Source: Verrucomicrobiota bacterium
GTDB taxonomy: Bacteria; Verrucomicrobiota; Verrucomicrobiia; Chthoniobacterales; UBA6821
Assembly (NCBI GenBank): GCA_008932965.1
Contig: WBXG01000009.1
Span: forward strand, 4,145-36,144
Length of the DNA stretch: 32,000 nt
Direction: 5' to 3'
Shown here: positions 225 through 23,649 of the stretch, in pieces
Layout of the letters: each line of letters opens with the position of its first letter
Numbering within the stretch: position 1 is the first letter of the stretch
The notes under the pieces: generated by a model
What the model saw: the letters and a program-made list of their open reading frames with translations, nothing else
Told to the model about the DNA's origin: nothing
Database searches by the model: none
Translations under genes and position numbers: made by a program

Positions 225-2294
225 GTGAATTTTTCTAAAAATAGATTGTTGTTCATTTGTTGTTTTTTAGGGTTATCCCGAATATATCATGCTGATTTTG
301 CTGCGGCTTGCGAAAGCTATAGAGATACAGCGTCAGGCTCGACCTGCTCCTCGAGCGGTATAGAACATACGCCTCTTGAAAATCATTGCCTTGATTGCCT
401 AGATCAGCCTTCGTGGCCTCCTCGTCATGATCAGTATGATATATCTGGGCTAGGTATCATTGGTATTGAGAACTATGTCTTTTTTTTAAATTGTACTGCT
501 AAGAGTGATTCCGGTGGTGCCTTTGATTTGCTTATGGAGGAGGGGAAAAATCAAGTTATTATTCGTTATGGAGAGCCAGGAAGTTATTTTTACGAAGTAG
601 TTTTAGAGAAAGAGGAGCCTCTCTATTGGATAAGTGAGCATGATGCTATCGGCTACTGTGACTGGAGGAATGCATTTCTCCATAATAAAGAATATCATTT
701 AGAAATTGGAGTAGCATTCAAAGAGGTTGATCATGAACTCAAATCCAATCTTAAGAATTATCCTTTAATAGAGAATGCCGTTGTTGTTCGGCAAACAGTG
801 TTAGATGCTATGAGTGATTATTCTCTCCTCCTAGAGGATGAGGAACTTTTCATTGGTCTTGCCTGCCTTTTTTTTGGGACCGCAGCAAATCATTCGATTC
901 AAAAGTGCAGGGATAATCATTACGATCACGTTGAGGTAATTCAAGAAGCAGGAAATGCGGTACTAACAACATCTTTGCTTCAGGAAGAAGGCGATAGCCA
1001 TCTCCCTTCTACTCATCAATGGAATAATCAGGAACTTTTCGAGACATCGGATGCAGTTCTCAATCATACTTATCCTGCTCGATTAGCTGCTTCTCCTTTG
1101 TTACCAAACGAGGAGGGTTCTGATGTGGCTATTCCATTGATATCAAGACGACTCTTTCCTAACACCCCAGATCGTGATGTGGAAAATTCTGACTCATCGG
1201 ACAATGCTGTTTCAGGAATGATTTTGGATATGCACAAAATAGATCTCTCGGCGGAAAGCGATAGTAGTCCCGATTCGAGTGATAGTGAATATGGAGCAAA
1301 AACATTAATGCGAAAAGTAGCACACCAGGTGAAGCACATTAAACCAAAGAACTACGCCATTAACCAAGATGGAACCGAGGAAATTACAGAGGAGGAAATG
1401 AAAGCAAATCCTGGGAAATTTTATATAGCAAATTTCCGTGGCGATTATCTCAGTTATTTTAAGACAAATCGTGCTAGAAGAAGTTATGTTAAAAAAGCAG
1501 TTGATAGCGTTGTTTCCAATCATCCCATTCCTTTCCGCTCAATAGCAGTTAAAGAAATAGAAAGAAAATATCCAGGGAAAGAGGAGAGGGCTGAAGCATT
1601 CTCCCAACTCAACACCGCGCACAAGATAAAGGACTCTAGCTATGTGAAAACTTATAAATCACCAACCCATTTTTCCAGGGCAGTTCAGGAGGTCAGTCCT
1701 GAATATGGGAATCCCATCATTTCAACTTCAAAAGATACTAAAGTCAGCCCCGTTTATGCCGATCATCCCAAAGATAAGGCTTTGTTATTACCTCAATATT
1801 CTGAAAACAAAAAACCAAAGCACCGTCTTATTGGTGTGACTACAGTTATTGTGCATGAGGCAAACGAATATGCAGCAAGAACAAAAGCTGATATTGAACA
1901 GCTCAGAACGCATCGAGAAATCGGAAAGATATCGGCTGTTGAAAGAAAAAATGATGAAATTCTCTTTGAGGGTGTTATTGAATCGAAAAACATAGCCGGC
2001 TATGTTCCTCTTGCGTATCCCAATTTATCCAAAAAATATTCTTTTAAAGATAAAGGGTTATTCGGTTTAGATGAGGAAGAGGGATTGGGGCTTACAAGAA
2101 GTTCTCCAAAAACACTAGGAAAGAAGGCCAAGGAGAATACCCTTTTTAAAGCTAATCGGCGCTTTCAATGGAGGTTAGCAGAAAAATATGTTACCGATAA
2201 AAATCCTCGAGGAGAATTAATTTGGGTAGATCGAGAGGGGAATTTCAATCGATTTAGAGCAAATCAAGATTCTAAGCTCTATATTTCAGACTAG
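225..2294 (+). CDS. Orphan 689-aa protein: hydrophobic N-terminus, in-frame palindromic-element insert, acidic Ser/Asp linker, basic C-terminal domain with possible ART-like motifs
   Basis: A long uninterrupted ORF with GTG start at 225 and TAG stop at 2292-2294 inside the terminus of element copy B. Residues ~17-76 are encoded by element copy A. No confident homology by eye. FRG (1434-1442), STS (1722-1730) and DEILF (1953-1967) motifs are noted. The true start is uncertain. Confidence 0.6.
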   Translation: MNFSKNRLLFICCFLGLSRIYHADFAAACESYRDTASGSTCSSSGIEHTPLENHCLDCLDQPSWPPRHDQYDISGLGIIGIENYVFFLNCTAKSDSGGAFDLLMEEGKNQVIIRYGEPGSYFYEVVLEKEEPLYWISEHDAIGYCDWRNAFLHNKEYHLEIGVAFKEVDHELKSNLKNYPLIENAVVVRQTVLDAMSDYSLLLEDEELFIGLACLFFGTAANHSIQKCRDNHYDHVEVIQEAGNAVLTTSLLQEEGDSHLPSTHQWNNQELFETSDAVLNHTYPARLAASPLLPNEEGSDVAIPLISRRLFPNTPDRDVENSDSSDNAVSGMILDMHKIDLSAESDSSPDSSDSEYGAKTLMRKVAHQVKHIKPKNYAINQDGTEEITEEEMKANPGKFYIANFRGDYLSYFKTNRARRSYVKKAVDSVVSNHPIPFRSIAVKEIERKYPGKEERAEAFSQLNTAHKIKDSSYVKTYKSPTHFSRAVQEVSPEYGNPIISTSKDTKVSPVYADHPKDKALLLPQYSENKKPKHRLIGVTTVIVHEANEYAARTKADIEQLRTHREIGKISAVERKNDEILFEGVIESKNIAGYVPLAYPNLSKKYSFKDKGLFGLDEEEGLGLTRSSPKTLGKKAKENTLFKANRRFQWRLAEKYVTDKNPRGELIWVDREGNFNRFRANQDSKLYISD
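273..453 (+). mobile_element. Palindromic MITE-like element, copy A (degenerate TIRs), in frame inside CDS 225..2294
   Basis: Left end TTATCCCGAATATATCATGCTGAT, right end ATCAGTATGATATATCTGGGCTAG. The interior aligns with copies B and C2 (CTGCGGCTTGCGAA ... CAGCCTTCGTGGCCTCCTCGTCA). The TA-to-TA distance is 177 bp, which is 59 codons. Confidence 0.8.
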
Positions 2295-2422
2295 CCCGGA
2301 TATTTCATACCGATTCTGCTGCGGCTTGCGAACACCTGATGGATGCTGCGTTGATCTCGAAGTCTTTCCCTATAAGCTTTCGTGATCTCCTCGTCACGAT
2401 CAGTATGAAATATCCGGGCTAG
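2291..2422 (+). mobile_element. Palindromic MITE-like element, copy B (short 132-bp variant)
   Basis: CTAGCCCGGATATTTCATACCGAT ... ATCAGTATGAAATATCCGGGCTAG. TIRs are near perfect and CTAG is present at both ends. The left CTAG supplies the TAG stop of the upstream CDS. Confidence 0.9.
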
Positions 2423-4379: not shown

Positions 4380-6533
4380 GTGACTAAAAAGAAATCTTCC
4401 TCATCGCCTAAGCCACTAGCCTCACTCAAAGGAAAAAGTCCCTCATTAAAAAAGCAAGTGGTGAAAAAAAGTAGTGTTTCAAAAGTTATCACAAAAAAAA
4501 TGATTCCTATAAAGAAGCCTCTATCTAAGAAGCTGCTACCGGCTCTCAAAAAACCAGTGAGCCCTAAAAAAGTCTCTCCAGCTTCTAAAAAGAAGATATC
4601 TCCAAAGAAACCCTTGCCACGATCCACTAAGGTTACAAAGAAACCAACCTTACAAGTGGTCAAAAAAGTTTCCAAAAAAAAATTACCTCCCCTAAAAGTC
4701 TCGTCTAAAAAAAGTGCATTAAAGCCATTCGTGGTACATCAGGAAGAAAAAAAGGGTCATTCTTCAGTCGAAAAAAAGCCCACTGATAAAACAGTTAAAG
4801 AAAAGAAACCGTTAGAAGAGGCTTTTACTCATTCAAACTCTGAAGTAAAAGCTCTTTTTATTAAGAGCGATGCTGCTCCTAAAAACCCTGCAGAAGCTCA
4901 AAAGCTGCTACAAGAAAAAGTCCGTGAGCTCCTGAAATTAGCAAAGGAGCAAGGATATATAACCTTTGAAGATCTCGAGGAACATCTGCCAACGGGAATG
5001 AATAATCCCGAAACAGTTGAATCCATTTTGACCCAACTTCGCATTGTAGAAATAGATATTATTGATTCCTCTGATGTTGATCGTGTCAAAGAGATCAAGA
5101 AATCGGATGATGATGATGACAAGGACGACAAGGATGAAAAATCGGATGGGCGTCTTGATATTTTAGATGATCCTGTACGCATGTATCTAAAACAGATGGG
5201 GCAAGTTCCCCTTCTTACACGTGAGCAAGAAGTAGAAATTTCCAAACGTATTGAACAGGCACAAACAGAAATGCAAAATGTTCTCTACCAATTCGGCTTT
5301 GTGGCCCATGCACATATTGATTTAGCACAACGGCTACTGGATGCTCGAGAGCGCTTTGATCGCGTGATTCTCGATAAAAAAATTGAAAGTCGCGAACGCT
5401 ATTTAAAAACACTACCTCGTTTGTGTCAACAGCTCCAACGCCTTGCTTCTGAGACCTCGCTCATTTACAGCAAAAAAATTAATGCCAAAAAAGATCCACC
5501 TCCTAAAGACATCAAGGAAATGGAAAAACAGATTGAGGAAATTAACAAACTTTACCCTCGGTTTTATTTCAAACAGAAGATCACTGAAGATTTTGTTACC
5601 GTAGCGGACGACCACATTCGTTTGTTGCAGGAATTGCGTCTAGAGCATGAAAACCATATTAAAACACCGAGCCCCACATCGCGTCGTTTGATTCAGGCTA
5701 TTGTTGCTCAACGAGAGGAACATCATCATCGCAACTGGATGTCAACGGAGCACTTTGAACTGCAGCATCGAGATCTTAAGAAACATTTTCGTTCTGCCTT
5801 GCGTGCTAAGACAGAAATGGTCGAAGCAAACCTTCGTCTTGTTATTTCTATTGCAAAAAAATATACAAACAGAGGTCTTTCATTCCTTGATTTGATTCAA
5901 GAAGGAAACATGGGGCTCATGAAGGCTGTAGAAAAATTCGAGTACCGTCGCGGGTATAAATTTTCTACCTATGCAACATGGTGGATTCGTCAAGCGATTA
6001 CTCGTTCTATTGCAGATCAGGCACGTACTATTCGTATTCCTGTGCATATGATTGAAACGATTAATAAATTGATACGAGTGCAAAAGCAGCTTGTTCAAGA
6101 ATATGGTCGTGAGCCAACCCCTGAAGAAATTGCAGATGAAATCCAGCTTCCTGTAGAGCGTGTTCGAGCTGTTCTTAAAATGGCCCAACAGCCTATCTCA
6201 CTGCAGGCACCTGTTGGTGATAGTGATGATACAAGTTTTGGTGATTTCATTGAGGATAAATCAGCAGAGAACCCTGCTGATATGGCAGCAATTGTACTAC
6301 TCAAGGATAAAATTAAAGATGTTCTAGATTCATTAACAGAGCGTGAGCGCCAAGTATTAGAACAGCGTTTTGGTCTCGTTGATGGATACTCACGAACGTT
6401 AGAAGAAGTTGGAAAACAATTTAAGGTGACGCGTGAACGTATTCGACAGATAGAAGCAAAGGCTCTTCGCAAAATGCGCCATCCAACACGCCTTCGCCAA
6501 CTCGAAGGTTTCCTGGAGCCGAAAGACGTTTAA
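4380..6533 (+). CDS. rpoD: Primary RNA polymerase sigma factor (sigma-70 family) with a ~170-aa Lys-rich N-terminal extension
   Basis: Region 1.2 [21 protein letters not shown]. Region 2 [61 protein letters not shown]. Region 4.2 [33 protein letters not shown] start at 4380; downstream in-frame ATGs are possible starts. The TAA stop at 6531-6533 lies in the element terminus. Confidence 0.95.
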
Positions 6534-7018: not shown

Positions 7019-9637
7019 ATGTATTTTTCAACTGAGATTAGAAATTATTTTTTTGGAATCTGTAACAAAAAATGTTTCTTCATTAGGTTTCTAGCGCTTC
7101 TTTTTCTTCCCTTTTGTTTATTAAGTTCTCTTAGGTCAGAAAACTCCGGTGATCCTGCTCAAGAATTTCTTATTGCCTACCAAAACTTTCAGCAGGCAGA
7201 GCGTCTTGAGCGTGCTGGAAAACAGAGTGAAGCCATTACGAAATATCAATATTCAGAAGGTATCCTCAAGGCTCTAAGCACTAATAATCCCGACTGGCAA
7301 CAGCCTGTTGTTGATTATCGGTTGCATAAAGTAAGGGATAGTCTTGCACGTCTCAACGCTACTGTGCACCAAACAACCTCGGACCATGATGAGTCCTTTG
7401 AAAAAACCCCTTTCCAAGAGGGGCCTGCCAATAACTACAAGCCCTCCGGCAAGAGTATTTCTGACACTAAAGAAGAACAGAACTTAAAGGAAGGCCCTAG
7501 TATCTCCATTACCCCTCCTTCAACAAAAAAAAATCTTCCTAATCCTCAAATTGCTCAACTTCAACAACAGCTTCAAAAATCAGAATTAGAGCTCAAAAAA
7601 GTGCTGCAAAATCTCCATGATAAAACCATTGAACTTGATCACTCTAAGGTTGTTATTATCGACATGAAGTCTCAGCTAGAGAAAACAGAACGGCAAGTTT
7701 CCGATTTAAAGACTGATCTTTCAAAAGCAAATCTACGTGGAATGCAGCGCGAAGAGGCACTACAGCAATCTGTAAGAACATTAGAAAGCAAATTAGATGC
7801 TCTTACAGCGGAGCAAGAGATTGTTTTAGAGGAAAACAAACAATTGCAAGATCACTTAAATCAAGCAGAGGCTTCGCTTACTGCAGCAATGGGTGCAAGG
7901 CAACATTTAGAGGATTTGCAATTAGAGGTGAACAAAGAAAAAAATAATGCTGCTTTGCTGCACCAGAAACTTCTTATCTCTCAGAGTGAGTATAAAGCAA
8001 CCAGTGAGCTGAACAGTACGCTTAAAAAACAACTTTTAGAAGCTAATGCATCACTGACTCAATCTGAAAAACAAGCAAAGGAAGCAAGTGCTTTGCGTAT
8101 CCAGCTCGATAACCTTCGTGCTGATGATGCCTCTTTACAAGCACAGATTAGTGCAATGAATAAGGATCAACAGGAAAATTCTAATCACCTGAAGGAGGTT
8201 GCTCAAACAGCACAATGCGAGTACCAGGTGTTAGAAACTAAAAAAATAGAAATTGAAAAAAAACTCTCTGAGGCAAATGAAAAAATAAAAAAACTAGAGA
8301 ATAATTTACTGCATCAAGATGCAATGGAGGAAGAGATCGCTCACTATAAAAAAGAACTCCAGGAGAGTTCCCTGAAATTAATAGATCAAGAAAAGAAAAT
8401 TACTGAATTAGAGAAAGCGAAGCCAGAAAATGATCAAATTTTGAACGCAAAAGAAAAAGAACTGGCCTTTGAGCGTCTTAATTCTGAAAAGCTCCTCAAA
8501 GATCTTGCTACTGCAACTCAGAAAATATCAGTTCTGCAGGAAGAGGTGCACCTCAAGGATGATCATTATAGCGAGCTCAAAAAACAATTGGATAGTAAAA
8601 GTGAAGAGCTCTTAGCGATTCAGAAAAAAGAAGATCCTTATCAGATAGACGAGAATGCTATTGTTGAAAATCAATTACTCAAAGGCATTGTTATTCGTGC
8701 ATTGAAAGCAGAAGCAAAACGACAGCAAATCAAAAAACTTATCACCGATGACCTCCAAAAACTTAAAGTGAATTCTGTGACCCTATCCAATGAGCTAAAA
8801 AGATTAGCAAAACCTATGAAGCTGACTCCCGATGAAAAAGCTCTATTCAAAGATGTTCCTACGCTACCCACTTCTTCGGTAACTGAAGAAGAAGAGAATG
8901 ATGATTTCTTAATGCTCGCAGCAGTTGCTACTAAAAAAGAAGACCATTCGAATTTAAAAGAAGAGTCAGCTCACTCACAGAATTCTCCTTCAGCGACTTC
9001 TAATATCACTCAAGAAGATAAAAGTGCTGATCACAGTTCTAATAATGTTGGTCCTGTAAATGGAAAAAATAATGCTGAAACTTCACAAAAACATCGTGAA
9101 TTAATTGCTGCTGCGAAAGAAGAGTTTGAGCATCACAACTATTTTGAAGCAGAAAAAAAATTCCAGGATGCAATCACAATCTCCCCTGATGACTACTTAA
9201 CACTTTCTAATTTAGGTGTGGTTCAATTTCAACTTGGTAAAATGGCTGAGGCTGAATCTGTACTAAAAAAGGCTGTAGCATTAGATCATAAAAAATCTTT
9301 TGCACTCACGACGCTTGGAATTGTGGAATATCGTCAAGAAAAAATGAGTGAGGCAGAGAAGGATTTAAGGGAAGCTATCGCGATTAATGATCAAGATTTT
9401 ACAGCGCATAATTACTTGGGAATTGTACTCGCAGCATCGGGTAAGGGAAAAGCTGGTGAAAGTGAAATCATGAAGGCTTTGGAGATTAATCCACAATATG
9501 CTGATGCTCATTTTAACTTAGCTGTGATTTATGCAACGAGTATGCCTCCAGCAAAAGAGATAGCAAAATCCCACTATCAAAAAGCGATTGGATTGGGCGC
9601 TCCCACAGATGTATCTCTTGAAAAGATACTAAATTAA
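7019..9637 (+). CDS. Secreted or membrane-anchored coiled-coil protein with C-terminal TPR repeats
   Basis: Hydrophobic N-terminal signal or anchor (FIRFLALLFLPFCLLSS). About 450 aa of heptad-like Q/E/K/L-rich sequence. The C-terminus has TPR-like repeats (LSNLGVVQFQLGKMAEAESVLKKAVALD; AHNYLGIVLAASGKGKAGESEIMKALEINPQYADAHFNLAVIY). The TAA stop at 9635-9637 is in the terminus of element copy D. Confidence 0.8.
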   Translation: MYFSTEIRNYFFGICNKKCFFIRFLALLFLPFCLLSSLRSENSGDPAQEFLIAYQNFQQAERLERAGKQSEAITKYQYSEGILKALSTNNPDWQQPVVDYRLHKVRDSLARLNATVHQTTSDHDESFEKTPFQEGPANNYKPSGKSISDTKEEQNLKEGPSISITPPSTKKNLPNPQIAQLQQQLQKSELELKKVLQNLHDKTIELDHSKVVIIDMKSQLEKTERQVSDLKTDLSKANLRGMQREEALQQSVRTLESKLDALTAEQEIVLEENKQLQDHLNQAEASLTAAMGARQHLEDLQLEVNKEKNNAALLHQKLLISQSEYKATSELNSTLKKQLLEANASLTQSEKQAKEASALRIQLDNLRADDASLQAQISAMNKDQQENSNHLKEVAQTAQCEYQVLETKKIEIEKKLSEANEKIKKLENNLLHQDAMEEEIAHYKKELQESSLKLIDQEKKITELEKAKPENDQILNAKEKELAFERLNSEKLLKDLATATQKISVLQEEVHLKDDHYSELKKQLDSKSEELLAIQKKEDPYQIDENAIVENQLLKGIVIRALKAEAKRQQIKKLITDDLQKLKVNSVTLSNELKRLAKPMKLTPDEKALFKDVPTLPTSSVTEEEENDDFLMLAAVATKKEDHSNLKEESAHSQNSPSATSNITQEDKSADHSSNNVGPVNGKNNAETSQKHRELIAAAKEEFEHHNYFEAEKKFQDAITISPDDYLTLSNLGVVQFQLGKMAEAESVLKKAVALDHKKSFALTTLGIVEYRQEKMSEAEKDLREAIAINDQDFTAHNYLGIVLAASGKGKAGESEIMKALEINPQYADAHFNLAVIYATSMPPAKEIAKSHYQKAIGLGAPTDVSLEKILN

Positions 9638-9822
9638 CCCGAATATTTCATACCGACCTATTGCGAAGATGGGAAAATTAGACGGATACTGCGTTAGAGT
9701 CATATTTTGACTTAGGCGATGGGGACTCATATAGCTCGGCATCACAATACTTCTCCCACCGTATACGAATACGTTTTGAAGCGTTGCCCGATAATACGTC
9801 AATTTAAAATATTCAGGTTTAA
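9634..9822 (+). mobile_element. Palindromic MITE-like element, copy D (right TIR degenerate)
   Basis: Left end TTAACCCGAATATTTCATACCGA. The interior GGATACTGCGTTAGAGTCATATTTTGACTTAGG matches copies L and O. Right end AAAATATTCAGGTTTAA. It occupies the whole gap between two convergent stop codons. Confidence 0.8.
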
Positions 9823-11288
9823 AAAGTCATGCTTGCTCTCATTCCAACCACAAAGGCATTGGGATATGCTTGAGTGACTCCAGGATGAATGACGTATTGT
9901 ATATCAGGTTGAACCGTGAACCATGGAGTGAGTTGAGCCTGATAGGTAAGTTCTATGTCAAAAGCTGTATTTGCAGGAGAGGTTCCTTTGTTTTGTTGTA
10001 TGGTGCTAATCCCTTGATTGCTGAGTAAACCATAAACAAATGCAAGACCAAGGAGATCTTGATTTCTGGTAGGAATAATTCCTTTGTAGTTCAAACCCGA
10101 ATCGCAGTAAAAGTTGAAAATATTGCGATCACCTGGTTCAAAAGCAATACGATGAAAAACTCCAAGACCTTGATCACTCTTGACCTCAGTAATTTTTATA
10201 TCATTAGGTTTTGAATCACTTTGGTGAACGTTTTGATTGGGACAATAAACCTTTTGATCAATGATTCCATAGATACCGTAGTTTCCAGGAAACGAATCAT
10301 TTGGGTTACTAAAATTAGTAAATGTAGAAGAGCTAAACCAAGCACCTGCTTTGATTTTTCCGGGTAAGGTGCAGTGATAACGATAGGCTGCTTCTGTAAG
10401 ATAAAGATATCCTTGGTTTGAATTCAGGTTCCAATCAAAACCGTGGTTATTCACATTTTGTGGGTAGACATTTCCCTGAAAGAGAGCTGCTTTAAAGGAA
10501 AATTGATCATTCGGTTCCAACTTGAGACGTACTCCGGGAGCCCCAACTGGGTAGCCAGGCCCTCCATTTGGAATACTGGTAAAGATGAATGCAGGCCATC
10601 CAAGCGTGTTGTTGAGGAAGAGAGCTGCATAGTCAGAAATGACAAATTCCGAATCAGCATCCATCTGGCCTACACGCAGAGAAATTTTATCATCAAAAAA
10701 TGTTTGCTCGAGCCAGAGCTCAATATTTCTAATGGTGCTATAACCGGTAATACTAGAGACCCCAAATATATCACCTACTAAATTTACTGATGGGTCTTGG
10801 CCATCTAGATAAAGCCAACGTGAGTAAAAGGTGCCACCTTTCCAATGAATGATTTTTTCTAAATTAACCGTTGTTGCCAACTGAAGAACAGAAGCGTAAA
10901 CACTCCCCGTTTTCATTCCTCCTGTTGTGTTTCCCCAAACTTCATTAATGAAGGAAAAACCGAGATCGATTCCTTCTTTTGAAAGGGTATCTCTTACCCC
11001 AAACCAATCTCCTGTAGCATTATTCTTTTCCAACCATGGTTGAAACTTGCGAATAGATTGATTTTGATCAGGCGTTGTTTCTAAACCAGCATCCAGATTG
11101 CTTTCCGGCATCTGAAGCTGATTTATATGAAACAAGGGATTGGGATCATCGTTATTAAGGACTGGGGAGAGGGGCTCTGCTTTGAGTGATTGGCTCACAA
11201 ACAACATCACTAAAAATACAAAGAACAGTACCAATCTTGAAAAAACATCAGAGGTTATAAGTACAAGCTTCATGAAAAAAATGAGCAC
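9819..11288 (-). CDS. Carbohydrate-selective porin, OprB family
   Basis: Signal peptide ending SLKA/EP. The block GDWFGVRDTLSKEGIDLGFSFINEVWGNTTGGMKTGSVYASVLQLATTVNLEKIIHWKGGTFYSRWLY ... LRVGQMDADSEF follows the OprB-family signature as I recall it. It has a C-terminal aromatic residue (F). A later ATG at 11273 is an alternative start. Confidence 0.75.
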   Translation of the reverse strand: MLIFFMKLVLITSDVFSRLVLFFVFLVMLFVSQSLKAEPLSPVLNNDDPNPLFHINQLQMPESNLDAGLETTPDQNQSIRKFQPWLEKNNATGDWFGVRDTLSKEGIDLGFSFINEVWGNTTGGMKTGSVYASVLQLATTVNLEKIIHWKGGTFYSRWLYLDGQDPSVNLVGDIFGVSSITGYSTIRNIELWLEQTFFDDKISLRVGQMDADSEFVISDYAALFLNNTLGWPAFIFTSIPNGGPGYPVGAPGVRLKLEPNDQFSFKAALFQGNVYPQNVNNHGFDWNLNSNQGYLYLTEAAYRYHCTLPGKIKAGAWFSSSTFTNFSNPNDSFPGNYGIYGIIDQKVYCPNQNVHQSDSKPNDIKITEVKSDQGLGVFHRIAFEPGDRNIFNFYCDSGLNYKGIIPTRNQDLLGLAFVYGLLSNQGISTIQQNKGTSPANTAFDIELTYQAQLTPWFTVQPDIQYVIHPGVTQAYPNAFVVGMRASMTF

Positions 11289-11379: not shown

Positions 11380-12120
11380 CTAATTTAGGAACTGTGGAAT
11401 TTTTCCTAATCGTTTAGGATGAAGGCCTCTTTTTTTAGAGACGAGCCCGTTTTGAACACAGTACTCAGAGATAGTGGCAACAATTTCACGTGCTGTACGA
11501 CGGCGATCTATAGAAACACCACTACCCATGGCTCCCCCTACAGAACCTCCTGCATTAATAAGAACATTGGAGAGAACAAAGGGACCAATGGGAGTGAATG
11601 CAGCAGCAGCTCCAGGAGCTATTCCCGAACCTCCTGTTGTTTTTATACTTAACAAAATAGGTTGATCTGATTGTTGGGAAAGATCGATAAGTTGAATATT
11701 TGTTTCCATTTTTGTTTTACCTAATCCTAATCCAATTCCTGCTCGTAAGAGTCGGCTCCCTTCCTGGACAGATTCAAAAGAGCCTTTGAGTAACCAGAAA
11801 TTTCCATTAGGTGGTTTTTCTCCAGGTTCCAAAAGAACGGCAGGAGCAATATGTTTATTGAGGCGAAGGATCAAATCATCTGCAAATTGAGTTCGCTCAC
11901 TTTCAATGAGCTTAACAAGCTCTTTTCCTTTTCGATTCACCTGAAAGTGGAGCGTTGGAGCTTCAACTTTTTCAACATAAATCCGTTCAGGGAGTTTTGT
12001 TGGATGCATGCTACTAGGTTGAATATTATTCACGCTTACAGAAGCGCAGCTCATCATTAATAAAGCGATGATGCTGATGATGAAATAACGAAGATAAAAG
12101 AGGAATAGAGAATGCTTCAC
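11380..12120 (-). CDS. Putative lipoprotein (possibly DUF4410-like), likely co-transcribed with the porin
   Basis: Signal peptide with Cys (IIALLMMSCASVS) and a Gly/Ala-rich C-terminal half. The start is moved to in-frame GTG 12120, because the ORF-track N-terminus (12121-12237) is read from element copy E. Confidence 0.6.
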   Translation of the reverse strand: MKHSLFLFYLRYFIISIIALLMMSCASVSVNNIQPSSMHPTKLPERIYVEKVEAPTLHFQVNRKGKELVKLIESERTQFADDLILRLNKHIAPAVLLEPGEKPPNGNFWLLKGSFESVQEGSRLLRAGIGLGLGKTKMETNIQLIDLSQQSDQPILLSIKTTGGSGIAPGAAAAFTPIGPFVLSNVLINAGGSVGGAMGSGVSIDRRRTAREIVATISEYCVQNGLVSKKRGLHPKRLGKIPQFLN

Positions 12121-12140
12121 AATGAGAAAATAAAATCGAA

Positions 12141-12322
12141 TAAATGTGGATATTTCATACCAATCACCTGCGGAGACCGAGAAGCTAGGTGGATAGTACG
12201 TTGATCTCGAAGTCTTCCTCGAGCAGTCTGTACACACAGCAATTATCAGACTTCATCGCTCGCCTGGTCCCATCAGCCTTCGCGACCTCCTCGTCACGAT
12301 CAGTATGAAATATCCGAGTTAA
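12141..12322 (+). mobile_element. Palindromic MITE-like element, copy E
   Basis: Left end TAAATGTGGATATTTCATACCAATC (outermost bases degenerate). Right arm CCATCAGCCTTCGCGACCTCCTCGTCACGATCAGTATGAAATATCCGAGTTAA. Confidence 0.85.
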
Positions 12323-12401: not shown

Positions 12402-13664
12402 ATGAATACTGATCTCATCGTTATGATTCCTTTTGTCATTATGCTCCTAGCTGTAGCATTTATGCCCTTTGTACATAGCACTTGGTGGAACTTACATTTT
12501 AAAAAGGTTTCGTTCTTTTTAGCGGGTATCATTATTCTCTATTATCTCCTGGTACGACATGATGTTCCACGGTTGTGTATTCTTTTGAGTGAGTATTTTA
12601 GTTTTATCGTTCTTATTGGATCACTTTTTTTGGTTACTGGGGGAATTTATTTACGTGTTCAGGGTGAAGCAACCCCACTGAGAAACACTATTTTTTTAAT
12701 AGTAGGTTCCATCATGGCAGTTTTCATTGGAACCACAGGAGCCTCCATGCTTCTGATTCGGCCTTGGATTCATAGTAACCGTTATCGCATTACTGCATTT
12801 CATATTATATTTTTCATTTTTATGATTAGCAATATTGGTGGATGTTTGAGTCCTATTGGGGATCCCCCTCTCTTTTTAGGATATCTTCGTGGAGTCCCTT
12901 TTTTTTGGCTTTTTCAACATCTTTGGTTTGCTTGGCTGCTTTCCATGAGTTTACTTGCAGCCATTTTTTATTTTCTAGACAGAAAAAATTTTCTGAAAGC
13001 ACCTCTCTCGGTTCGTACTTTTGAAACATATAACGAGGCTTGGACTTTTAAGGGTCTATTCAATCTTTTCTTTTTAGCAATAATTATTGGAGCGGTTTTT
13101 CTTCCTTCTCCATGGAGAGAAATAATGATGATTCTAGCTGCTTTGAGTTCTTATTTGTTAACTTCAAAAAATATTTTTGTAGCAAATAAATTTACATTTC
13201 ATCCTATAGAAGAGGTTGCATGGCTTTTCTTTGGTATATTTGCCACAATGGTCCCTGTTCTTGATTACCTTGAAGAAAGAGTATCTCTCACTTCTTCTTA
13301 TCCCGCGCTAAAACCCATCCATTTTTATTATTTAACAGGATTTCTTTCCACCTGCCTGGATAATGCACCTACCTACCTGGCATTGCTTCAACTCCATTTA
13401 GGAATGAATGGAATGAGTATAGAGAAAGTCAATGATGTCGCCTATGTTGCCATGAACAATCCACAATTTCTTACTGCGATTGCTCTTGGAGCGGTTTTCT
13501 TTGGAGCAACTACCTACATTGGTAATGGTCCTAACTTTATGGTAAAAAGTATCGCGGAAGATGCAGAGATTCGTATGCCAAATTTTGTGCATTATATCTT
13601 GTGCTATTCGTTACCAATTTTAGCTCCTATCTTGTTTCTCATTGGATGGGTTTTTTTCCACTAA
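12402..13664 (+). CDS. Polytopic ion-transporter-superfamily permease (ArsB/NhaD/CitMHS-like; often annotated sodium:proton antiporter)
   Basis: About 11-12 hydrophobic segments, with motifs DNAPTYLALL and GNGPNFMVKSIAE. The family assignment is from memory only. The TAA stop at 13662-13664 lies in the terminus of element copy F. Confidence 0.6.
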   Translation: MNTDLIVMIPFVIMLLAVAFMPFVHSTWWNLHFKKVSFFLAGIIILYYLLVRHDVPRLCILLSEYFSFIVLIGSLFLVTGGIYLRVQGEATPLRNTIFLIVGSIMAVFIGTTGASMLLIRPWIHSNRYRITAFHIIFFIFMISNIGGCLSPIGDPPLFLGYLRGVPFFWLFQHLWFAWLLSMSLLAAIFYFLDRKNFLKAPLSVRTFETYNEAWTFKGLFNLFFLAIIIGAVFLPSPWREIMMILAALSSYLLTSKNIFVANKFTFHPIEEVAWLFFGIFATMVPVLDYLEERVSLTSSYPALKPIHFYYLTGFLSTCLDNAPTYLALLQLHLGMNGMSIEKVNDVAYVAMNNPQFLTAIALGAVFFGATTYIGNGPNFMVKSIAEDAEIRMPNFVHYILCYSLPILAPILFLIGWVFFH

Positions 13665-13714
13665 CCCGGATATTTCATACTGATCGTGAGGAGGAGGCCG
13701 TGAAGGCTGATGGG
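13661..13714. repeat. Palindromic element copy F (single arm only)
   Basis: CTAACCCGGATATTTCATACTGATCGTGAGGAGGAGGCCGTGAAGGCTGATGG, then unrelated sequence. No partner TIR occurs before the next gene. Confidence 0.8.
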
Positions 13715-15533: not shown

Positions 15534-15608
15534 GCGCGGTTAGCTCAGCGGTAGAGCACTACACTGACACTGTAGGGGTCGGCAGTTCGAACCTGCCATC
15601 GCGCACCA
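15534..15608 (+). tRNA. tRNA-Val (anticodon GAC), CCA encoded
   Basis: Hand-folded cloverleaf. Acceptor GCGCGGT/ATCGCGC, D stem GCTC/GAGC, anticodon stem CTACA/TGTAG with loop CTGACAC, variable GGGTC, T stem GGCAG/CTGCC with loop TTCGAAC, then ACCA. Confidence 0.92.
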
Positions 15609-15613
15609 TGAAG

Positions 15614-15820
15614 TTAGTGTATTTCACACCGATCTACTGCGGAGACCATGAAATCACATGGATGCGGCGTTAGACTCCCATTGTGACTTGGGAAGTATGT
15701 ACTTATACAGCCGTCGTCAAATTACGTGTCTGCGTTGACTCGCTCACTCCCGACCGCCGGCGGTGCCCCGTTAGCCTTCGCAGCTCCCTCCTTACGATCA
15801 GTATGAAATATCCGGGCTAG
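15614..15820 (+). mobile_element. Palindromic MITE-like element, copy H (long variant); its right end overlaps the dnaE 3' end
   Basis: Left end TTAGTGTATTTCACACCGATCTACTGCGGAGACC, with a small deletion in the TIR. Right end CCTCCTTACGATCAGTATGAAATATCCGGGCTAG. It starts 6 nt after the tRNA-Val CCA. Confidence 0.85.
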
Positions 15821-18800
15821 TGTACAAGAATTTTAGAAGTGCTTTTTTAAGAGAGTTTTCGTCATCCACACGAAAATGAGCTCCTGTTTTTAATGGAACA
15901 ATACTTCCGTCAGGATGGACTATTTCTAAAATCAAAGAACGAGTACCATGGTGTTGTTTTAGAATTGTTCTAATACTTGTGAGGTTTTCTAAATTTAATT
16001 TTGTGCGATCGAGTTTGATTTTTAATGGTTTTTTCGAAAGTAGAGGTTGGAGCAGTTTGAAGTCTGAACCGATGGCTCTTACCATGCCCTCCCGTGGAAT
16101 AATTTTTAAGACACACGAGACTACTGTTCCTGGCTTTAGAAGCTTTTCGTGTTCGGTGAAAGCTTCATTCCAGACGGTCATTTCAATGTTGCCGCTATAA
16201 TCCTCTAGGGCAATAATTCCAAATGCTTTCCCTTCCTTCTTTGTGAACTTTTTTTCTACCGTAGAAATGATGCCTGCTACTTTTTCTTTGAGTGGTTCTG
16301 TTGATTCTTGAAGATGAATAAGTGGAGTCAATTTTTCCTTCTCTAATGTCCCTTCATAATCCTCTAGAGGATGACCGGTGACATAGAACCCAAGAAGTTC
16401 TTTTTCGTATGAAAGCTGAATAGCTCTAGGCCAAGGTATGGCTTGGGGTTTGGAATGAGTGGTGTTTTGTGTTTGCGATGGAGCGAAGGATTCTAAGCTG
16501 TCAAAAAGTGAAACCTGTCCCGAGGCTCGATCTCGTTGAATTGAGGCAGCTGAGGCAATAGCAGGTTCAATAGCTTCAAAGAGTTCAGCTCGATGACGTC
16601 CGTCAAAATCAAAAGCACCAGCTTTGACTAAACTCTCAAGGATCTTTTTGTTCACACTGCGTGTATCGAGTCGCGAGCAAAAATCCTCGAGTGATTTAAA
16701 AGGACCATGTGCTTCACGTTCTGCAATAGCTGAGGCCATGGCAGCAGCACCTACATTCTTGACAGCAGCAAGGCCGAATCGAATGCCACGTGCTTTTTTC
16801 TCCTCTTCAGGCAAAAAGGTGAGTCCGCTCTTATTGATGTTCGGTGGAAGAATTGTAATTTCCATGCGAGTGCAGTCGGCCACAAAAGTCGTAATCTTCT
16901 CAGTATTGTTGACAGCATTACTGAGGAGTCCAGCCATGAATTCAATAGTATAATTTGCCTTGAGATAGGCTGTCTGATAGGAAATCAGCGCATAGGCAGC
17001 ACTGTGGCTTTTGTTAAAACCATATTCCGCAAATTTTTCTAAGAAATCAAAAATGGCATTTGCCTGCTTCTCTGGAATGTTATTGAGCCGCTTACATCCC
17101 TCAACAAAAGTGAGGCGTTCTTTGGCCATCTTTTCTTTATCTTTTTTACCCATGGCACGACGTAAGAGGTCTGCCTGGCCAAGGGTGTAACCAGCAAGAA
17201 TATTAGCCGCTTGTTGCACCTGCTCTTGATACACAATGATTCCGTAAGTTTCGGAGCAAATTGTTTCTAGTAGCGGTTGAGCATAGCTCATTTTTTTTGT
17301 CCCTTTTTTTCGTTCAATATACTCATCAATGAACTGCATTGGGCCTGGACGATAGAGTGCAATTAGTGCAATGAGGTCTTCAAAACGATCTATTTGAAGA
17401 CGTTTGGCGACACTCGTCATTCCCCCTGACTCGAGCTGGAAGAGGCCAACGGATTCGCCTCGATTAAGAAGGGCGAAGGTTACTGGATCATCTATGGGAA
17501 TATTTTCTAAAGAAAATGTAGGATTCTTTTGATGAATGAGTTTTACAGCATCACTCATCACAGTAAGTGTCGTAAGTCCCAAAAAATCCATTTTAAGAAG
17601 ACCTAAGTCGGTAAGGGGAGCCATGGAATATTGGCTTACGATTCCACCATCATTACCTCGAGTCAGCGGAATATAGTCAGAAAGATCCCGGTCGGCGATT
17701 ACGATTCCAGCTGCATGAACGCCACTATTGCGCGTGATCCCTTCTAAAATAGTTGCGTAGTTCCAGAGCTGGCTTGTCGATTGTTCTTGTTCTACTGCTA
17801 TTTTTAAATCTGAATTTTTATCTATTGCACCTGGTTCATGTTTCCCTTTTTTATCAACACCATTGAGAGTAATGTTAAGTTCATTAGGGATCATTTTTGC
17901 AATACGATCTGCGTCGCTGTAGCTCCACCCTAAAACACGTCCTACATCACGAACAACGCTCTTAGCACCCATTGTGCCAAAAGTGATGATTTGGGAAACA
18001 GCACGCTCCCCATACTTATTGCGAACATAGTCGATAACTTCACCTCGACGGTTCTGGCAAAAATCAATATCGATATCGGGAGGGCTAATACGATCCGGGT
18101 TGAGGAAACGTTCAAAAATCAATCCATATCGTAGTGGGTCAAGGTCTGTAATCCCAAGAACATAGGCGACTAGGGATCCAGCTGCAGATCCACGTCCAGG
18201 GCCAACAGGAATGCCATGTGTTTTTGCATAATGAATAAAATCCCAAACAATGAGGAAGTAACTCACAAAGCCAGTTTTTTCTAGAATAGAGAGTTCATAG
18301 TCAAGTCGCTGGCGCAGCTCTCCATCCGACTGTATACGATCCCCATAGCGTCGCTGCATCCCCTCTTCAGAAAGCTCACGTAGAAAGCCTTCTCGAGTTT
18401 TTCCTTCAGGTGGTTTGTAATCTGGGTACTTAGAATGTCCAAATTCGATGGTCAGGTTACAACGCTCAGCAATAGTGAGGGTGTTGCTAATTGCATCAGG
18501 ACAATCGGCAAAGAGAGCTGCCATTTCCTCACCTGATTTAAAGTAGAGTTCCGGAACATAGTGCATCCTTTTTTCATCAGCTACCATAGCCCCTGTACCA
18601 ATGCAAATCATGACATCGTGGGCTTCATGATGGGCGCGTTCGAGAAAGTGGACATCATTAGTGGCGACGAGTCCTAATTCAAATTTTTTGGCAAGTTCGA
18701 TTAACAAGGGACGATTGTGACGTTGTGCTTCAATCCCATGATCGCTTAATTCAATAAAGAAATTTTCTTTTCCAAAAATAGTACGATATTCTTGAGTAAG

Positions 18801-19283
18801 GGTTGATGCTTTTTCGAAATCTCCGCTAGTTAAAGCAACATTAATTTCTCCTTTTAAGCATCCACTGAGCGCAATGAGGCCCTCGGCATGCTGGGTAAGG
18901 AGTTTTTTATCAACGCGTGGTTTATAGTAGAAACCTTCTAGGTGTGCCGCTGTGCTCAGCTTAATAAGATTGTGATAGCCTGTATCATTCATGGCTAAGA
19001 GAGTCAAATGATAGGCACTCTCTTTTCCATGATTGCCACCCTTTTTTTCATACATCGATCCTGGAGCTACATAAATTTCGCACCCGATGATTGGCTTGAT
19101 TCCGGCTTCAGTGGCTTTTTGATAAAATTCAATAGCTCCAAAAAGATTTCCGTGATCGGTGAGTGCCACAGCAGGCATATTGCATGCATGAGCCTTAGCA
19201 ATAAGATCATCAATACGAATGGCCCCATCCAGCATGGAATACTCGCTATGAAGATGCAGATGAACAAAGGGAACCGTAGACAT
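15798..19283 (-). CDS. dnaE: DNA polymerase III alpha subunit
   Basis: PHP domain VHLHLHSEYSMLDG, the core motifs GRGSAAGSLVAYVLGITDLDP and FERFLNPDRISPPDIDIDF, and a C-terminal OB-fold region. 1161 aa. The last six codons (SPDISY) plus the stop are read from element copy H. Confidence 0.96.
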   Translation of the reverse strand: MSTVPFVHLHLHSEYSMLDGAIRIDDLIAKAHACNMPAVALTDHGNLFGAIEFYQKATEAGIKPIIGCEIYVAPGSMYEKKGGNHGKESAYHLTLLAMNDTGYHNLIKLSTAAHLEGFYYKPRVDKKLLTQHAEGLIALSGCLKGEINVALTSGDFEKASTLTQEYRTIFGKENFFIELSDHGIEAQRHNRPLLIELAKKFELGLVATNDVHFLERAHHEAHDVMICIGTGAMVADEKRMHYVPELYFKSGEEMAALFADCPDAISNTLTIAERCNLTIEFGHSKYPDYKPPEGKTREGFLRELSEEGMQRRYGDRIQSDGELRQRLDYELSILEKTGFVSYFLIVWDFIHYAKTHGIPVGPGRGSAAGSLVAYVLGITDLDPLRYGLIFERFLNPDRISPPDIDIDFCQNRRGEVIDYVRNKYGERAVSQIITFGTMGAKSVVRDVGRVLGWSYSDADRIAKMIPNELNITLNGVDKKGKHEPGAIDKNSDLKIAVEQEQSTSQLWNYATILEGITRNSGVHAAGIVIADRDLSDYIPLTRGNDGGIVSQYSMAPLTDLGLLKMDFLGLTTLTVMSDAVKLIHQKNPTFSLENIPIDDPVTFALLNRGESVGLFQLESGGMTSVAKRLQIDRFEDLIALIALYRPGPMQFIDEYIERKKGTKKMSYAQPLLETICSETYGIIVYQEQVQQAANILAGYTLGQADLLRRAMGKKDKEKMAKERLTFVEGCKRLNNIPEKQANAIFDFLEKFAEYGFNKSHSAAYALISYQTAYLKANYTIEFMAGLLSNAVNNTEKITTFVADCTRMEITILPPNINKSGLTFLPEEEKKARGIRFGLAAVKNVGAAAMASAIAEREAHGPFKSLEDFCSRLDTRSVNKKILESLVKAGAFDFDGRHRAELFEAIEPAIASAASIQRDRASGQVSLFDSLESFAPSQTQNTTHSKPQAIPWPRAIQLSYEKELLGFYVTGHPLEDYEGTLEKEKLTPLIHLQESTEPLKEKVAGIISTVEKKFTKKEGKAFGIIALEDYSGNIEMTVWNEAFTEHEKLLKPGTVVSCVLKIIPREGMVRAIGSDFKLLQPLLSKKPLKIKLDRTKLNLENLTSIRTILKQHHGTRSLILEIVHPDGSIVPLKTGAHFRVDDENSLKKALLKFLYTSPDISY

Positions 19284-19377: not shown

Positions 19378-20226
19378 TCAACTTGTAATACGACATCCTA
19401 CTTCCCGCAAACCCTCTAGAGTAAGGGTAGTATTGATATGGTCAAAAAGTTGAGTTCCTTGCGCAACAAGTTTGGCATCTGTCCCAGTTGCGATCACACA
19501 TGGTCTTTTATTTTTGAAATTTTCTTTTGTTACCCGTGTTACAACCTCTTGAACTAGACCACGAGCTCCTAAGAGTAATCCAGAGTGAATAGCCGTGAGG
19601 GTGCTTTTTCCTACAGCACGACGAATGGGTGAGGGAAGAGATACTGGCAATAGGGCTGTCTTTTCATGCAATGCATCAGCTCCTGTTTTGAGTCCTGGAG
19701 CAATGATTCCACCTAAGTAGGCACCTTGAGCATTAATGATATCAAAAGTAATAGCTGTCCCAAAGTCGACCACGATGGCTGGAGTACCATAGAGAGCTGT
19801 AGTGGCCACCACATTGGCAAGACGGTCTGCCCCAATAGAAGCGGGATCTGGGTAGTTTATAGGAATGCCAAGTTGGCTTGTTGCATCAATAGAGAGAAAC
19901 GGAATACGTTGAGATTTAAAGAACGATGCCAGAAGATGTGTTGCTTTTGGAACAACAGAGGAAGCGATAACACGTTCTACTTTCCAATCTCCTAGAGCCA
20001 AAGCAAGTGTTGTAGGACTTAACAGCGATGTCGCAATTCGGCGAATAGTTATCAAACGCTTTGAAGTTGAGAGAGCCAATTTTGAAGTGGAATTACTAGC
20101 ATCAATCAAAAGCCATTTTCCATGCTGAAGAGGAGAGGGGTTAATCTTTACTGCCTCCCCGTCACAATCAGTATGAAATATCCAGGCTAGCTCCTTTTTT
20201 TTGCTAGCTCTTTTTTTATCATTCAC
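19378..20226 (-). CDS. coaX: Type III pantothenate kinase
   Basis: LLIDASNST (DxGNT-like phosphate-1 motif), VVDFGTAITFD and GGIIAPGL. The ORF-track GTG start at 20226 gives a ~39-aa extension partly read from element copy J. In-frame TTG at 20109 (M-IDASNST) would give the canonical N-terminus. Confidence 0.85.
   Translation of the reverse strand: MNDKKRASKKKELAWIFHTDCDGEAVKINPSPLQHGKWLLIDASNSTSKLALSTSKRLITIRRIATSLLSPTTLALALGDWKVERVIASSVVPKATHLLASFFKSQRIPFLSIDATSQLGIPINYPDPASIGADRLANVVATTALYGTPAIVVDFGTAITFDIINAQGAYLGGIIAPGLKTGADALHEKTALLPVSLPSPIRRAVGKSTLTAIHSGLLLGARGLVQEVVTRVTKENFKNKRPCVIATGTDAKLVAQGTQLFDHINTTLTLEGLREVGCRITS
20151..20190. repeat. Palindromic element copy J (one arm only)
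   Basis: CTGCCTCCCCGTCACAATCAGTATGAAATATCCAGGCTAG is a right-arm sequence without a partner TIR. Confidence 0.75.
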
Positions 20227-23512: not shown

Positions 23513-23626
23513 TTATCATTTGCGAAGACCTAGTAGGAGAGAGTCAACTTTTTTAATGACACTTTTCATTCTTCTTCTGCTTGCGCTCAATGCCGAAGGA
23601 TGCAAAATTAATACTTTCTAAAAATT

Positions 23627-23649
23627 CAGGTATGAAATATCCGGGTTAA
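23627..23649. repeat. Solo terminal remnant of the palindromic element (copy K)
   Basis: CAGGTATGAAATATCCGGGTTAA matches the right terminus only. Confidence 0.6.

Follow-up and report, generated by a model that had tools for sequence, protein, structure and literature searches.

To our knowledge, palindromic repeats that are compatible with coding sequence have mostly been discussed as a peculiarity of Rickettsia. The Rickettsia palindromic elements (RPEs) RPE-1 to -3 measure 105-146 bp (Ogata et al. 2000, as cited in PMC10969869 and PMC2229807), their target duplication is given as '?' (PMC2229807), and the Gmk gene product that contains an RPE insert is translated and enzymatically active (PMC2229807). 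Here, we describe a repeat family found in a stretch of 32,000 nucleotides from a Verrucomicrobiota bacterium (Chthoniobacterales, UBA6821; assembly GCA_008932965.1, contig WBXG01000009.1, positions 4,145 to 36,144 of the forward strand), hereafter the window, and in related metagenome-assembled genomes (MAGs). This element is very probably a non-autonomous, hairpin-forming MITE (miniature inverted-repeat transposable element) of lake Chthoniobacterales/Verrucomicrobiota that resembles RPEs and is compatible with coding sequence. Like RPEs, it is a short palindromic repeat that forms a hairpin, reaches a high copy number and encodes a conserved peptide in each copy, and it occurs in intergenic positions as well as in frame within conserved protein genes, including those of unrelated housekeeping enzymes, without destroying them. 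Unlike RPEs, it is longer (176+4 nt versus 105-146 bp), has 25-nt terminal inverted repeats (TIRs) and a clear 4-bp YTAR duplication, is open and used on both strands, and often lies exactly on stop codons. The host phylum also differs, since the carriers are lake MAGs of Verrucomicrobiota and not Rickettsiales, and the element was set apart from RPEs by host and anatomy rather than by sequence comparison. It thus acts like an RPE but is no member of the RPE family, its hosts being outside Rickettsia and Wolbachia, and openness in both directions and the targeting of stop codons are its most distinctive details.

Other bacterial MITEs share part of this behavior. The Correia elements or NEMIS of Neisseria (PMC2229807) occur as 107-bp and 155-bp species, and one class is open and fused in genes while the other contains stops and is almost only intergenic. 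Like our element, they have inverted repeats (~24 bp there), a TA-containing target and a hairpin, and their length classes have a parallel in the 184-nt open copies and the 185-nt and 186-187-nt closed variants described below. Compared by description, the element differs from them in its host and in that the open class is the majority, with ~30% of near-canonical copies read through. The 127-bp ERIC/IRU and other enterobacterial MITEs have also been reported as intragenic (Delihas 2007, as cited in PMC2229807 and PMC10969869); these are likewise small mobile repeats with contiguous open frames that occasionally form in-frame fusions with host genes. However, intragenic ERIC copies are exceptions, whereas the in-frame genic copies are a large fraction here and include core enzymes. 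In the literature searched, we found no account of such an element for Verrucomicrobia or Chthoniobacterales.

The TIRs are 25 nt long (TTAACCCGGATATTTCATACTGATC), with element ends that begin CCCGGATATTTCATACTGATC. A 20-nt TIR core gave 19 matches in the 32-kb window, against none expected from shuffles, and a profile search detected ~15 full or partial copies (Table 1). Relatives were sampled by scanning one genome per species with the TIR core, which gave 93 loci (L001-L093) totaling ~600 kb, most of them from three Chthoniobacterales/'Spartobacteria' lake MAGs, CAIWMF01, JAIPKF01 and JBMOFC01; DATEBV01 and JAPLTJ01 were also found to carry the element. Loci L007, L085, L039 and L040, from MAGs labeled as Alphaproteobacteria and others, were chance 20-mer matches with no element and were dropped from the distribution. 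The window and the 93 loci together contained 336 TIR ends forming 126 pairs, with a modal length of 184 nt (61 pairs). The flanking 4-mers were direct repeats, i.e., TTAA in 35 cases, CTAG in 17 and CTAA/CTAA in 10, and the inverted pair CTAA/TTAG never occurred. For this reason, the 2-bp TA duplication behind the earlier TA-to-TA measurements was abandoned in favor of a 4-bp one. Therefore, a modal copy consists of a 176-nt element plus a 4-bp YTAR target duplication, a net gain of 180 nt or 60 codons. The only open reading frame (ORF) within the 176 nt is this 60-codon frame, and there is no transposase gene inside. Copy N has no TIR mismatch at either end, as is the case for the left end of copy O, which has three at its right end. 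The whole length of copy N is predicted to fold into a hairpin of -85 kcal/mol (z = -8.4), and this hairpin is predicted to be weakened in the decayed copy A (z = -2.6). The Rfam scan of the window matched only two tRNAs and no family corresponding to the element. With its TIRs, its 4-bp target duplication, its small size without a transposase and its presence/absence polymorphism between genomes, the element is very probably a MITE.

Table 1. Copies of the element, their hosts and neighboring features in the window (net, gain over the empty site).
Feature	Coordinates	Strand	Size	Description
ORF 225	225-2294	+	689 aa	host of copy A, which lies just past the signal-peptide-like N-terminus
Copy A	273-453	+	181 nt (net +177 nt = 59 codons)	decayed full-length copy in ORF 225-2294
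Copy B	2291-2422	+	132 nt (net +128 nt)	internally deleted, CTAG...CTAG, model positions 2-78 and 126-183; exactly at the stop codon of ORF 225-2294 (TAG 2292-2294, within the CTAG duplication)
rpoD-like ORF	4380-6533			lysine/proline/serine-rich N-terminal extension of ~130 residues ahead of the conserved sigma-70 regions
Copy C1	6530-6668	+		left part, starts on the rpoD stop (TAA 6531-6533); right end missing
Copy C2	6669-6934	+	266 nt	long variant, CTAA...CTAA, ~83 nt of extra G+C-rich interior
Copy D	9634-9754	+		left two-thirds, starts on the stop (TAA 9635-9637) of the TPR protein ORF 7019-9637
Copy E	12141-12322	+	182 nt	length not a multiple of three; upstream of the lipoprotein ORF
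Copy F	13661-13714	-	54 nt	end fragment on the stop (TAA 13662-13664) of the antiporter ORF 12402-13664
tRNA gene	15534-15605	+		ends 8 nt before copy G
Copy G	15614-15820	+	~207 nt	variant adjoining a tRNA gene
Copy H	20146-20190	+	45 nt	end fragment in the 5' extension of the coaX ORF; minus strand reads LAWIFHTDCDGEA
Copy I	23625-23649		25 nt	solitary TIR end, 5 mismatches
Copy J	26672-26831	+		between nrdA and aroD; without right TIR; model positions 4-159
aroD	26875-27897	+	340 aa	type I 3-dehydroquinase, 120 inserted codons between beta1 and the rest of the barrel
Copy M, left part	26929-26994	+		outer, older aroD copy; CTAA...CTCA
Copy N	26995-27178	+	184 nt	canonical, TTAA...TTAA, nested in M, read in aroD frame 1, no stops on either strand
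Copy M, right part	27179-27292	+		model positions 70-182
tRNA gene	27895-27966	-		overlaps the last bases of aroD
Copy O	28077-28262	+	186 nt (net +182 nt)	intergenic, variant subfamily, stops in every frame
Copy P	31947-32000	-		end of a copy truncated at the window edge; the start of the livM ORF (30868-31977, minus strand) lies inside it (MTLQYEICGL)

Next, orthologous sites with and without the element were compared. JAIPKF01 shares synteny with the window (80-87% nucleotide identity), and its orthologue of ORF 225-2294 (L030 4850-6574), a protein for which no Pfam family was matched in the window, lacks copy A and keeps the N-terminus MSFSKYKLFIFFILSG. The site reads MSFSKYKLFIFFILSG-LFYLK..NYVLFLNSTAKSD in L030 versus MNFSKNRLLFICCFLG-[A]-LGIIGIENYVFFLNCTAKSD in the window, and the GTG start is placed 24-26 nt past the upstream gene in both. 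Copy O was likewise absent from L049, and both L015 and L003, and L036 and L086, differed in the presence of the element. In the first of these pairs, L015 has GAA-CTAA-[element]-CTAA-ATTGG where L003 has GGAA-CTTA-ATTGG, with a single 4-mer. In aroD, the alignment with uninserted homologues, which read PFI[IV]GT[LV]HS..CLK[RM]-L[AK]K..IDLLEARLD across the site, showed that copies M and N together add exactly 120 codons. The predicted junction peptide from host into insert reads ...CLRM-LTHHFHTD..., and other predicted junction and insert peptides of AroD are CLRMLTHHFHTD, EISGLNFSSK and IFGLKKSPR. The empty orthologous sites show that both copy A and the inserts of aroD entered coding sequence as genuine insertions. 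Copy N sits in M with TTAA on both flanks, and once it is taken out, M (26929-26994 plus 27175-27292) measures 184 nt including one 4-bp duplication, a net 180 nt and not the ~183 nt given in the first-pass annotation. The same annotation had counted A, M and N as three independent copies, and this does not stand, since N lies within M and the two share a single locus rather than marking two separate host sites. Its net lengths for A (177), N (180) and the intergenic copies B (128) and O (182) were reproduced by our recount. The same point in aroD is occupied by the double insert in the window and by single inserts with different mosaic interiors in P0128 (=L049) and P0129. These mosaic interiors, together with the presence of another subfamily at the aroD site of the sister genome, suggest that copies undergo gene conversion with one another or that the site has been used repeatedly.

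These insertions could in principle be plain disruptions, with untranslated upstream pieces, host proteins that start downstream or are pseudogenes, and long ORFs that are accidental. The gene calls are divided on this, since JGI calls aroD from past the insert (233 aa) and NCBI calls the full 340 aa; stand-alone element ORFs have also been annotated as hypothetical proteins, in 74 clusters. However, the N-terminal strand of AroD (PFIVGTLHS, with the invariant G8) is conserved across genomes upstream of the insert, as is the N-terminus of the ORF 225 orthologue. PF01487 matched AroD residues 149-332, and the PDB homologues likewise aligned from residue 149 on. In the AlphaFold model, beta1 (residues 5-10) is kept, the barrel is predicted with confidence (pLDDT >90), and the insert has a pLDDT of 33-65. 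Many copies lie hundreds of codons into their genes and are flanked by Pfam domains (Dxr, MurD, MalQ), and a restart past the insert would there lose most of the protein; the domains flank or span the insert in Dxr, MurD, PyrF, MalQ and AroD, and the N-terminal domain of Dxr is split at about profile position 50, these host domains being split but intact. GlnD-, LivM-, porin- and permease-/FtsX-like hosts were identified as well, by reading the sequences only. Taken with the census given below, in which the deep-genic copies preserve the frame, these data make disruption an unlikely explanation.

We then analyzed which features of the reading frames are forced by the repeat ends. Forward frame 1 enters as TTA ACC CGG ATA TTT CAT ACT GAT (LTRIFHTD) and leaves as GAT CAG TAT GAA ATA TCC GGG TTA (DQYEISGL), which is the sole open exit frame. 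When reading inward from either end, frame 2 stops at T-TAA/T-TAG in the duplication and frame 3 at TAC-TGA in the TIR. Copy A begins in phase 48 nt after the GTG and reads LSRIYHAD...PPRHDQYDISGL, copy N reads LTRIFHTD...PPRHDQYEISGL, and copy M reads LTHHFHTD...PPRHNQCEIFGL. Thus, the read-through of A, M and N in one frame, with the peptides claimed earlier, was confirmed, and their frame is indeed identical; this identity is nevertheless uninformative because stops in the TIR and the target duplication close the other frames. The further proposal of an identical orientation was not sustained as a rule, as three out of three copies in the window is non-significant and the wider sample included 17 forward and 11 reverse read-through copies. 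The element is open on both strands and its genic copies occur in both orientations, at variance with the single frame and orientation first suggested. Minus-strand ORFs read LxRIFHTD too because the element ends are inverted repeats. The minus-strand strings reported for coaX (ELAWIFHTDCDGEA), the lipoprotein (GDWYEIS) and livM (QYEICGLN) do exist and are accounted for in this way, but they do not constitute evidence of coding use. These three ORFs begin in or run through partial copies, or copies whose length is not a multiple of three (3n), and are not insertions into coding sequence; the lipoprotein ORF (11380-12237, minus strand) merely starts within copy E, where the GDWYEIS frame is closed upstream by two stops, one at the far end of E and another 23 codons in. 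Such extensions are artefacts of exactly the kind expected under disruption, and in this respect they speak for it.

Across the 91 near-canonical copies, four of the six frames were closed in essentially all (no more than 3/91 open), while forward frame 1 was open in 52 and reverse frame 1 in 47. When the 184-nt copies were compared with dinucleotide-shuffled versions of their interiors, openness was 79% versus 25% for the forward strand, 75% versus 11% for the reverse, and 54% versus 2.5% for both. Openness also persisted despite divergence: 13 of the 20 copies with at least 40 differences from the global consensus were open on both strands, against 0.7 expected from random substitution, and three of the four subfamily consensus sequences were open on both strands as well. 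The subfamilies were defined by clustering and have <70% internal identity; the median internal pairwise identity of the copies was 68%, with a 5th percentile of 42%. Non-genic 184-nt copies were open in 20/26 (forward) and 18/26 (reverse) cases, and deep-genic ones in 16/20 on each strand. Since non-genic copies were as open as deep-genic ones, openness belongs to the family and not just to the genic survivors, which bears out the idea that the family keeps a stop-free frame. Palindromy was considered as the cause of the reverse-strand openness and rejected, as the forward and reverse peptides diverge right after the TIR and the arms are read in different phases.

To classify copies as genic, the element and one duplication were deleted from the site, and an ORF of at least 150 codons had to span the restored site; deep-genic copies had at least 30 codons of this ORF on each side. 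By this test, 36 of the 91 near-canonical copies were genic, and 28 were read through in frame 1 (17 forward, 11 reverse). Length modulo three and stop content were tabulated for genic and non-genic copies over the window and the 93 loci, as proposed in the first-pass annotation, and the genic copies proved to be constrained. All 20 deep-genic copies were 184 nt long and thus of 3n net length, against 28 of the 46 non-genic copies with a 3n length (p = 6e-4), so the claim that only frame-preserving copies survive in genes was upheld together with that of a family-wide open frame, and both halves of what had been put forward as an either/or RPE-like reading hold. The frame being read was open in 19/20 deep-genic copies and the unread strand in 13/20 (p = 0.04). 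Closed 185-nt and 186-187-nt variants were not found deep in genes in the window or the 93 loci. This 20/20 frame preservation, with 19/20 copies stop-free in the frame read, is the census result that stands against disruption.

The element was also frequent at gene ends. At 76 element ends, an ORF with a length of 100 codons or more ran up to the element; it stopped in the duplication at 42 of these ends, entered frame 1 at 22, and stopped at the TGA of the TIR at 12. The commonest gene-associated position was exactly on the stop codon, which is regenerated by the target duplication; in the window, this was the case for copies B (ORF 225), C1 (rpoD), D (TPR protein) and F (antiporter). The stop codon is itself a target because YTAR contains TAA or TAG, and insertion there leaves the protein unchanged. 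An example of the third outcome is dnaE (15798-19283, minus strand), which enters the TIR of copy G in frame 3, continues for six codons and ends ...SPDISY* at the TGA of the repeat, indicating that the native C-terminus of DnaE has been replaced.

The very stable hairpin predicted for the whole-length RNA, along with the predicted lack of structure in the insert, could fit with removal of the element by RNA excision, hairpin processing or protein splicing, in which case the 60 residues would be absent from the mature proteins and the open frame would not matter. We consider this very unlikely. Excision would not account for the 3n length and the lack of stops in genic copies, by which they differ from many intergenic ones, and A and M, two decayed copies whose hairpins are weak and whose ends are mutated, are still open and in phase. 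Moreover, no Rfam intron or ribozyme family was matched, and the active Rickettsia Gmk with its RPE insert (PMC2229807) provides a precedent for translation. It is similarly hard to believe that the 60-residue peptide is a functional module (a linker or interaction motif, for instance) selected by the host with the DNA repeats as a by-product of its spread. The end peptides (LTRIFHTD / DQYEISGL) are conserved and inserts persist at the aroD site in several species, which speaks for such a module; however, these conserved ends are translated TIRs that are the same in intergenic copies and identical from either strand. In addition, most copies are non-genic, the forward and reverse peptides have no relation to each other and yet both are in use, neither the host proteins nor the insert positions are related among themselves, and the insert is the low-confidence part of the AroD model. 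A coding-compatible MITE thus remains our interpretation, with inserts that are probably translated and tolerated as surface loops; the frame and stop constraints, the conserved N-terminal pieces and the confidently predicted AroD barrel point indirectly to this translation.

Several observations weigh against this interpretation. Unlike insertion sequences (ISs) of the IS5 family, the element has no transposase, and no transposase, IS or autonomous element with its ends was found in ~600 kb of related sequence when TIR pairs 0.4-3.5 kb apart and multi-copy ORFs were inspected, as only ordinary genes lay between separate copies; this negative result counts weakly, and it is limited by the fact that MAG assemblies often lose repeats of the autonomous-element kind. 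The -85 kcal/mol hairpin, if formed in mRNA, might impede translation or be cleaved. The fourth subfamily consensus has one forward stop, and closed variants have multiplied too, namely a frameshifted group of 185 nt and one of 186-187 nt, to which copy O belongs. The genic class was defined by ORF length and not by annotation, and the JGI call for aroD is that of a protein starting after the insert. Finally, the copies are non-independent, owing to the subfamily structure and the presence of several copies per locus, so the effective sample for selection for openness is a few lineages and not 61 trials. Regarding its movement, the element was presumably mobilized by a transposase acting in trans. 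The IS5 group has a YTAR target and a 4-bp duplication and matches the element in both, and an IS5 origin is a candidate.

Insertion at YTAR (TTAA, CTAG, CTAA) duplicates 4 bp and adds 60 codons, and a mechanism can be proposed for its tolerance, with three outcomes set by the phase of the target in the host gene. In phase 1, YTA would be a Leu codon, and the host frame would enter LTRIFHTD...DQYEISGL (in reverse, ...YEISGL) and exit in phase with a 60-residue insert. In phase 2, TAR would be the gene's own stop, and the left duplication would restore it, leaving the protein unchanged and the element in the 3' untranslated region. In phase 3, the gene would stop at the TIR TGA after six codons, and such insertions would be retained only near C-termini. 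Host selection would remove every other genic insertion, and element lineages with a 3n length and both strands stop-free would persist in the coding sequence of a gene-dense genome. We suggest, tentatively and with less conviction than for the MITE itself, that this transposon lineage may have been shaped by element-level selection for translatability in either orientation, because the 3n length and the openness of both strands were kept across subfamilies <70% identical, and because the TIR stops end out-of-phase reading after six codons and the target doubles as a stop.

Other observations were made on the copies and their surroundings. The longer variants C2 (266 nt) and G (~207 nt) contain extra G+C-rich interior (..GTTGACTCGCTC.CTCCCGACCGCCGG.GGTGCCCC..), and pairs of 265-303 nt recur in related genomes, some of them open in the reverse frame. 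A weak profile match (E = 1.6e-4, residues ~52-69, ..PLFHINQLQMPES..) was obtained at 11081-11132 on the minus strand, within the porin-like ORF 9819-11288; the CAIWMF01 orthologue of this porin-like protein (L057) has a full reverse-orientation insert directly after the signal peptide, and the match may be the decayed remnant of an ancient insertion in frame. When the 60-residue forward peptide was searched against a 5.8-billion-protein set, only stand-alone 'hypothetical proteins' of 40-105 aa were retrieved, and no host proteins, so this search bears on distribution and annotation and is no count of hosts; stand-alone translated copies annotated in this way form the 74 clusters mentioned above. 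A second, unrelated in-frame repeat (...NCGVAPVL.SS..YTL..CAPSTP.TSS...) was seen in proteins of related MAGs, in L089 2690-2842 (MurD), P0139 (AroD), L070, L092, L032, L009, L073 and L048, and it was not found in the window. With the elements masked, element orientation was correlated with local GC skew: for 49 of 67 copies, the G-rich strand was the element's forward one (p = 2e-4). In the window, 12 of the 14 orientable copies are forward on the plus strand. This bias could stem from insertion linked to replication, from hairpins that differ in stability between the strands, or from gene direction as a confounder.

For annotation, the element inflates and splits gene calls in these MAGs, as illustrated by aroD (340 versus 233 aa) and by false N-terminal extensions in several genes. 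If element-level selection is true, coding sequence and stop codons would be the main habitat of the element, with 60-residue loops continually added to core enzymes, and the bias toward the G-rich strand could mean that insertion or retention is coupled to the direction of replication or transcription. The family also offers a test system for whether mobile elements evolve to be 'readable' and for the tolerance of proteins to insertions of 60 to 120 residues. A second, independent and cleaner case beyond Rickettsia would show that coding-compatible palindromic repeats are a general strategy.

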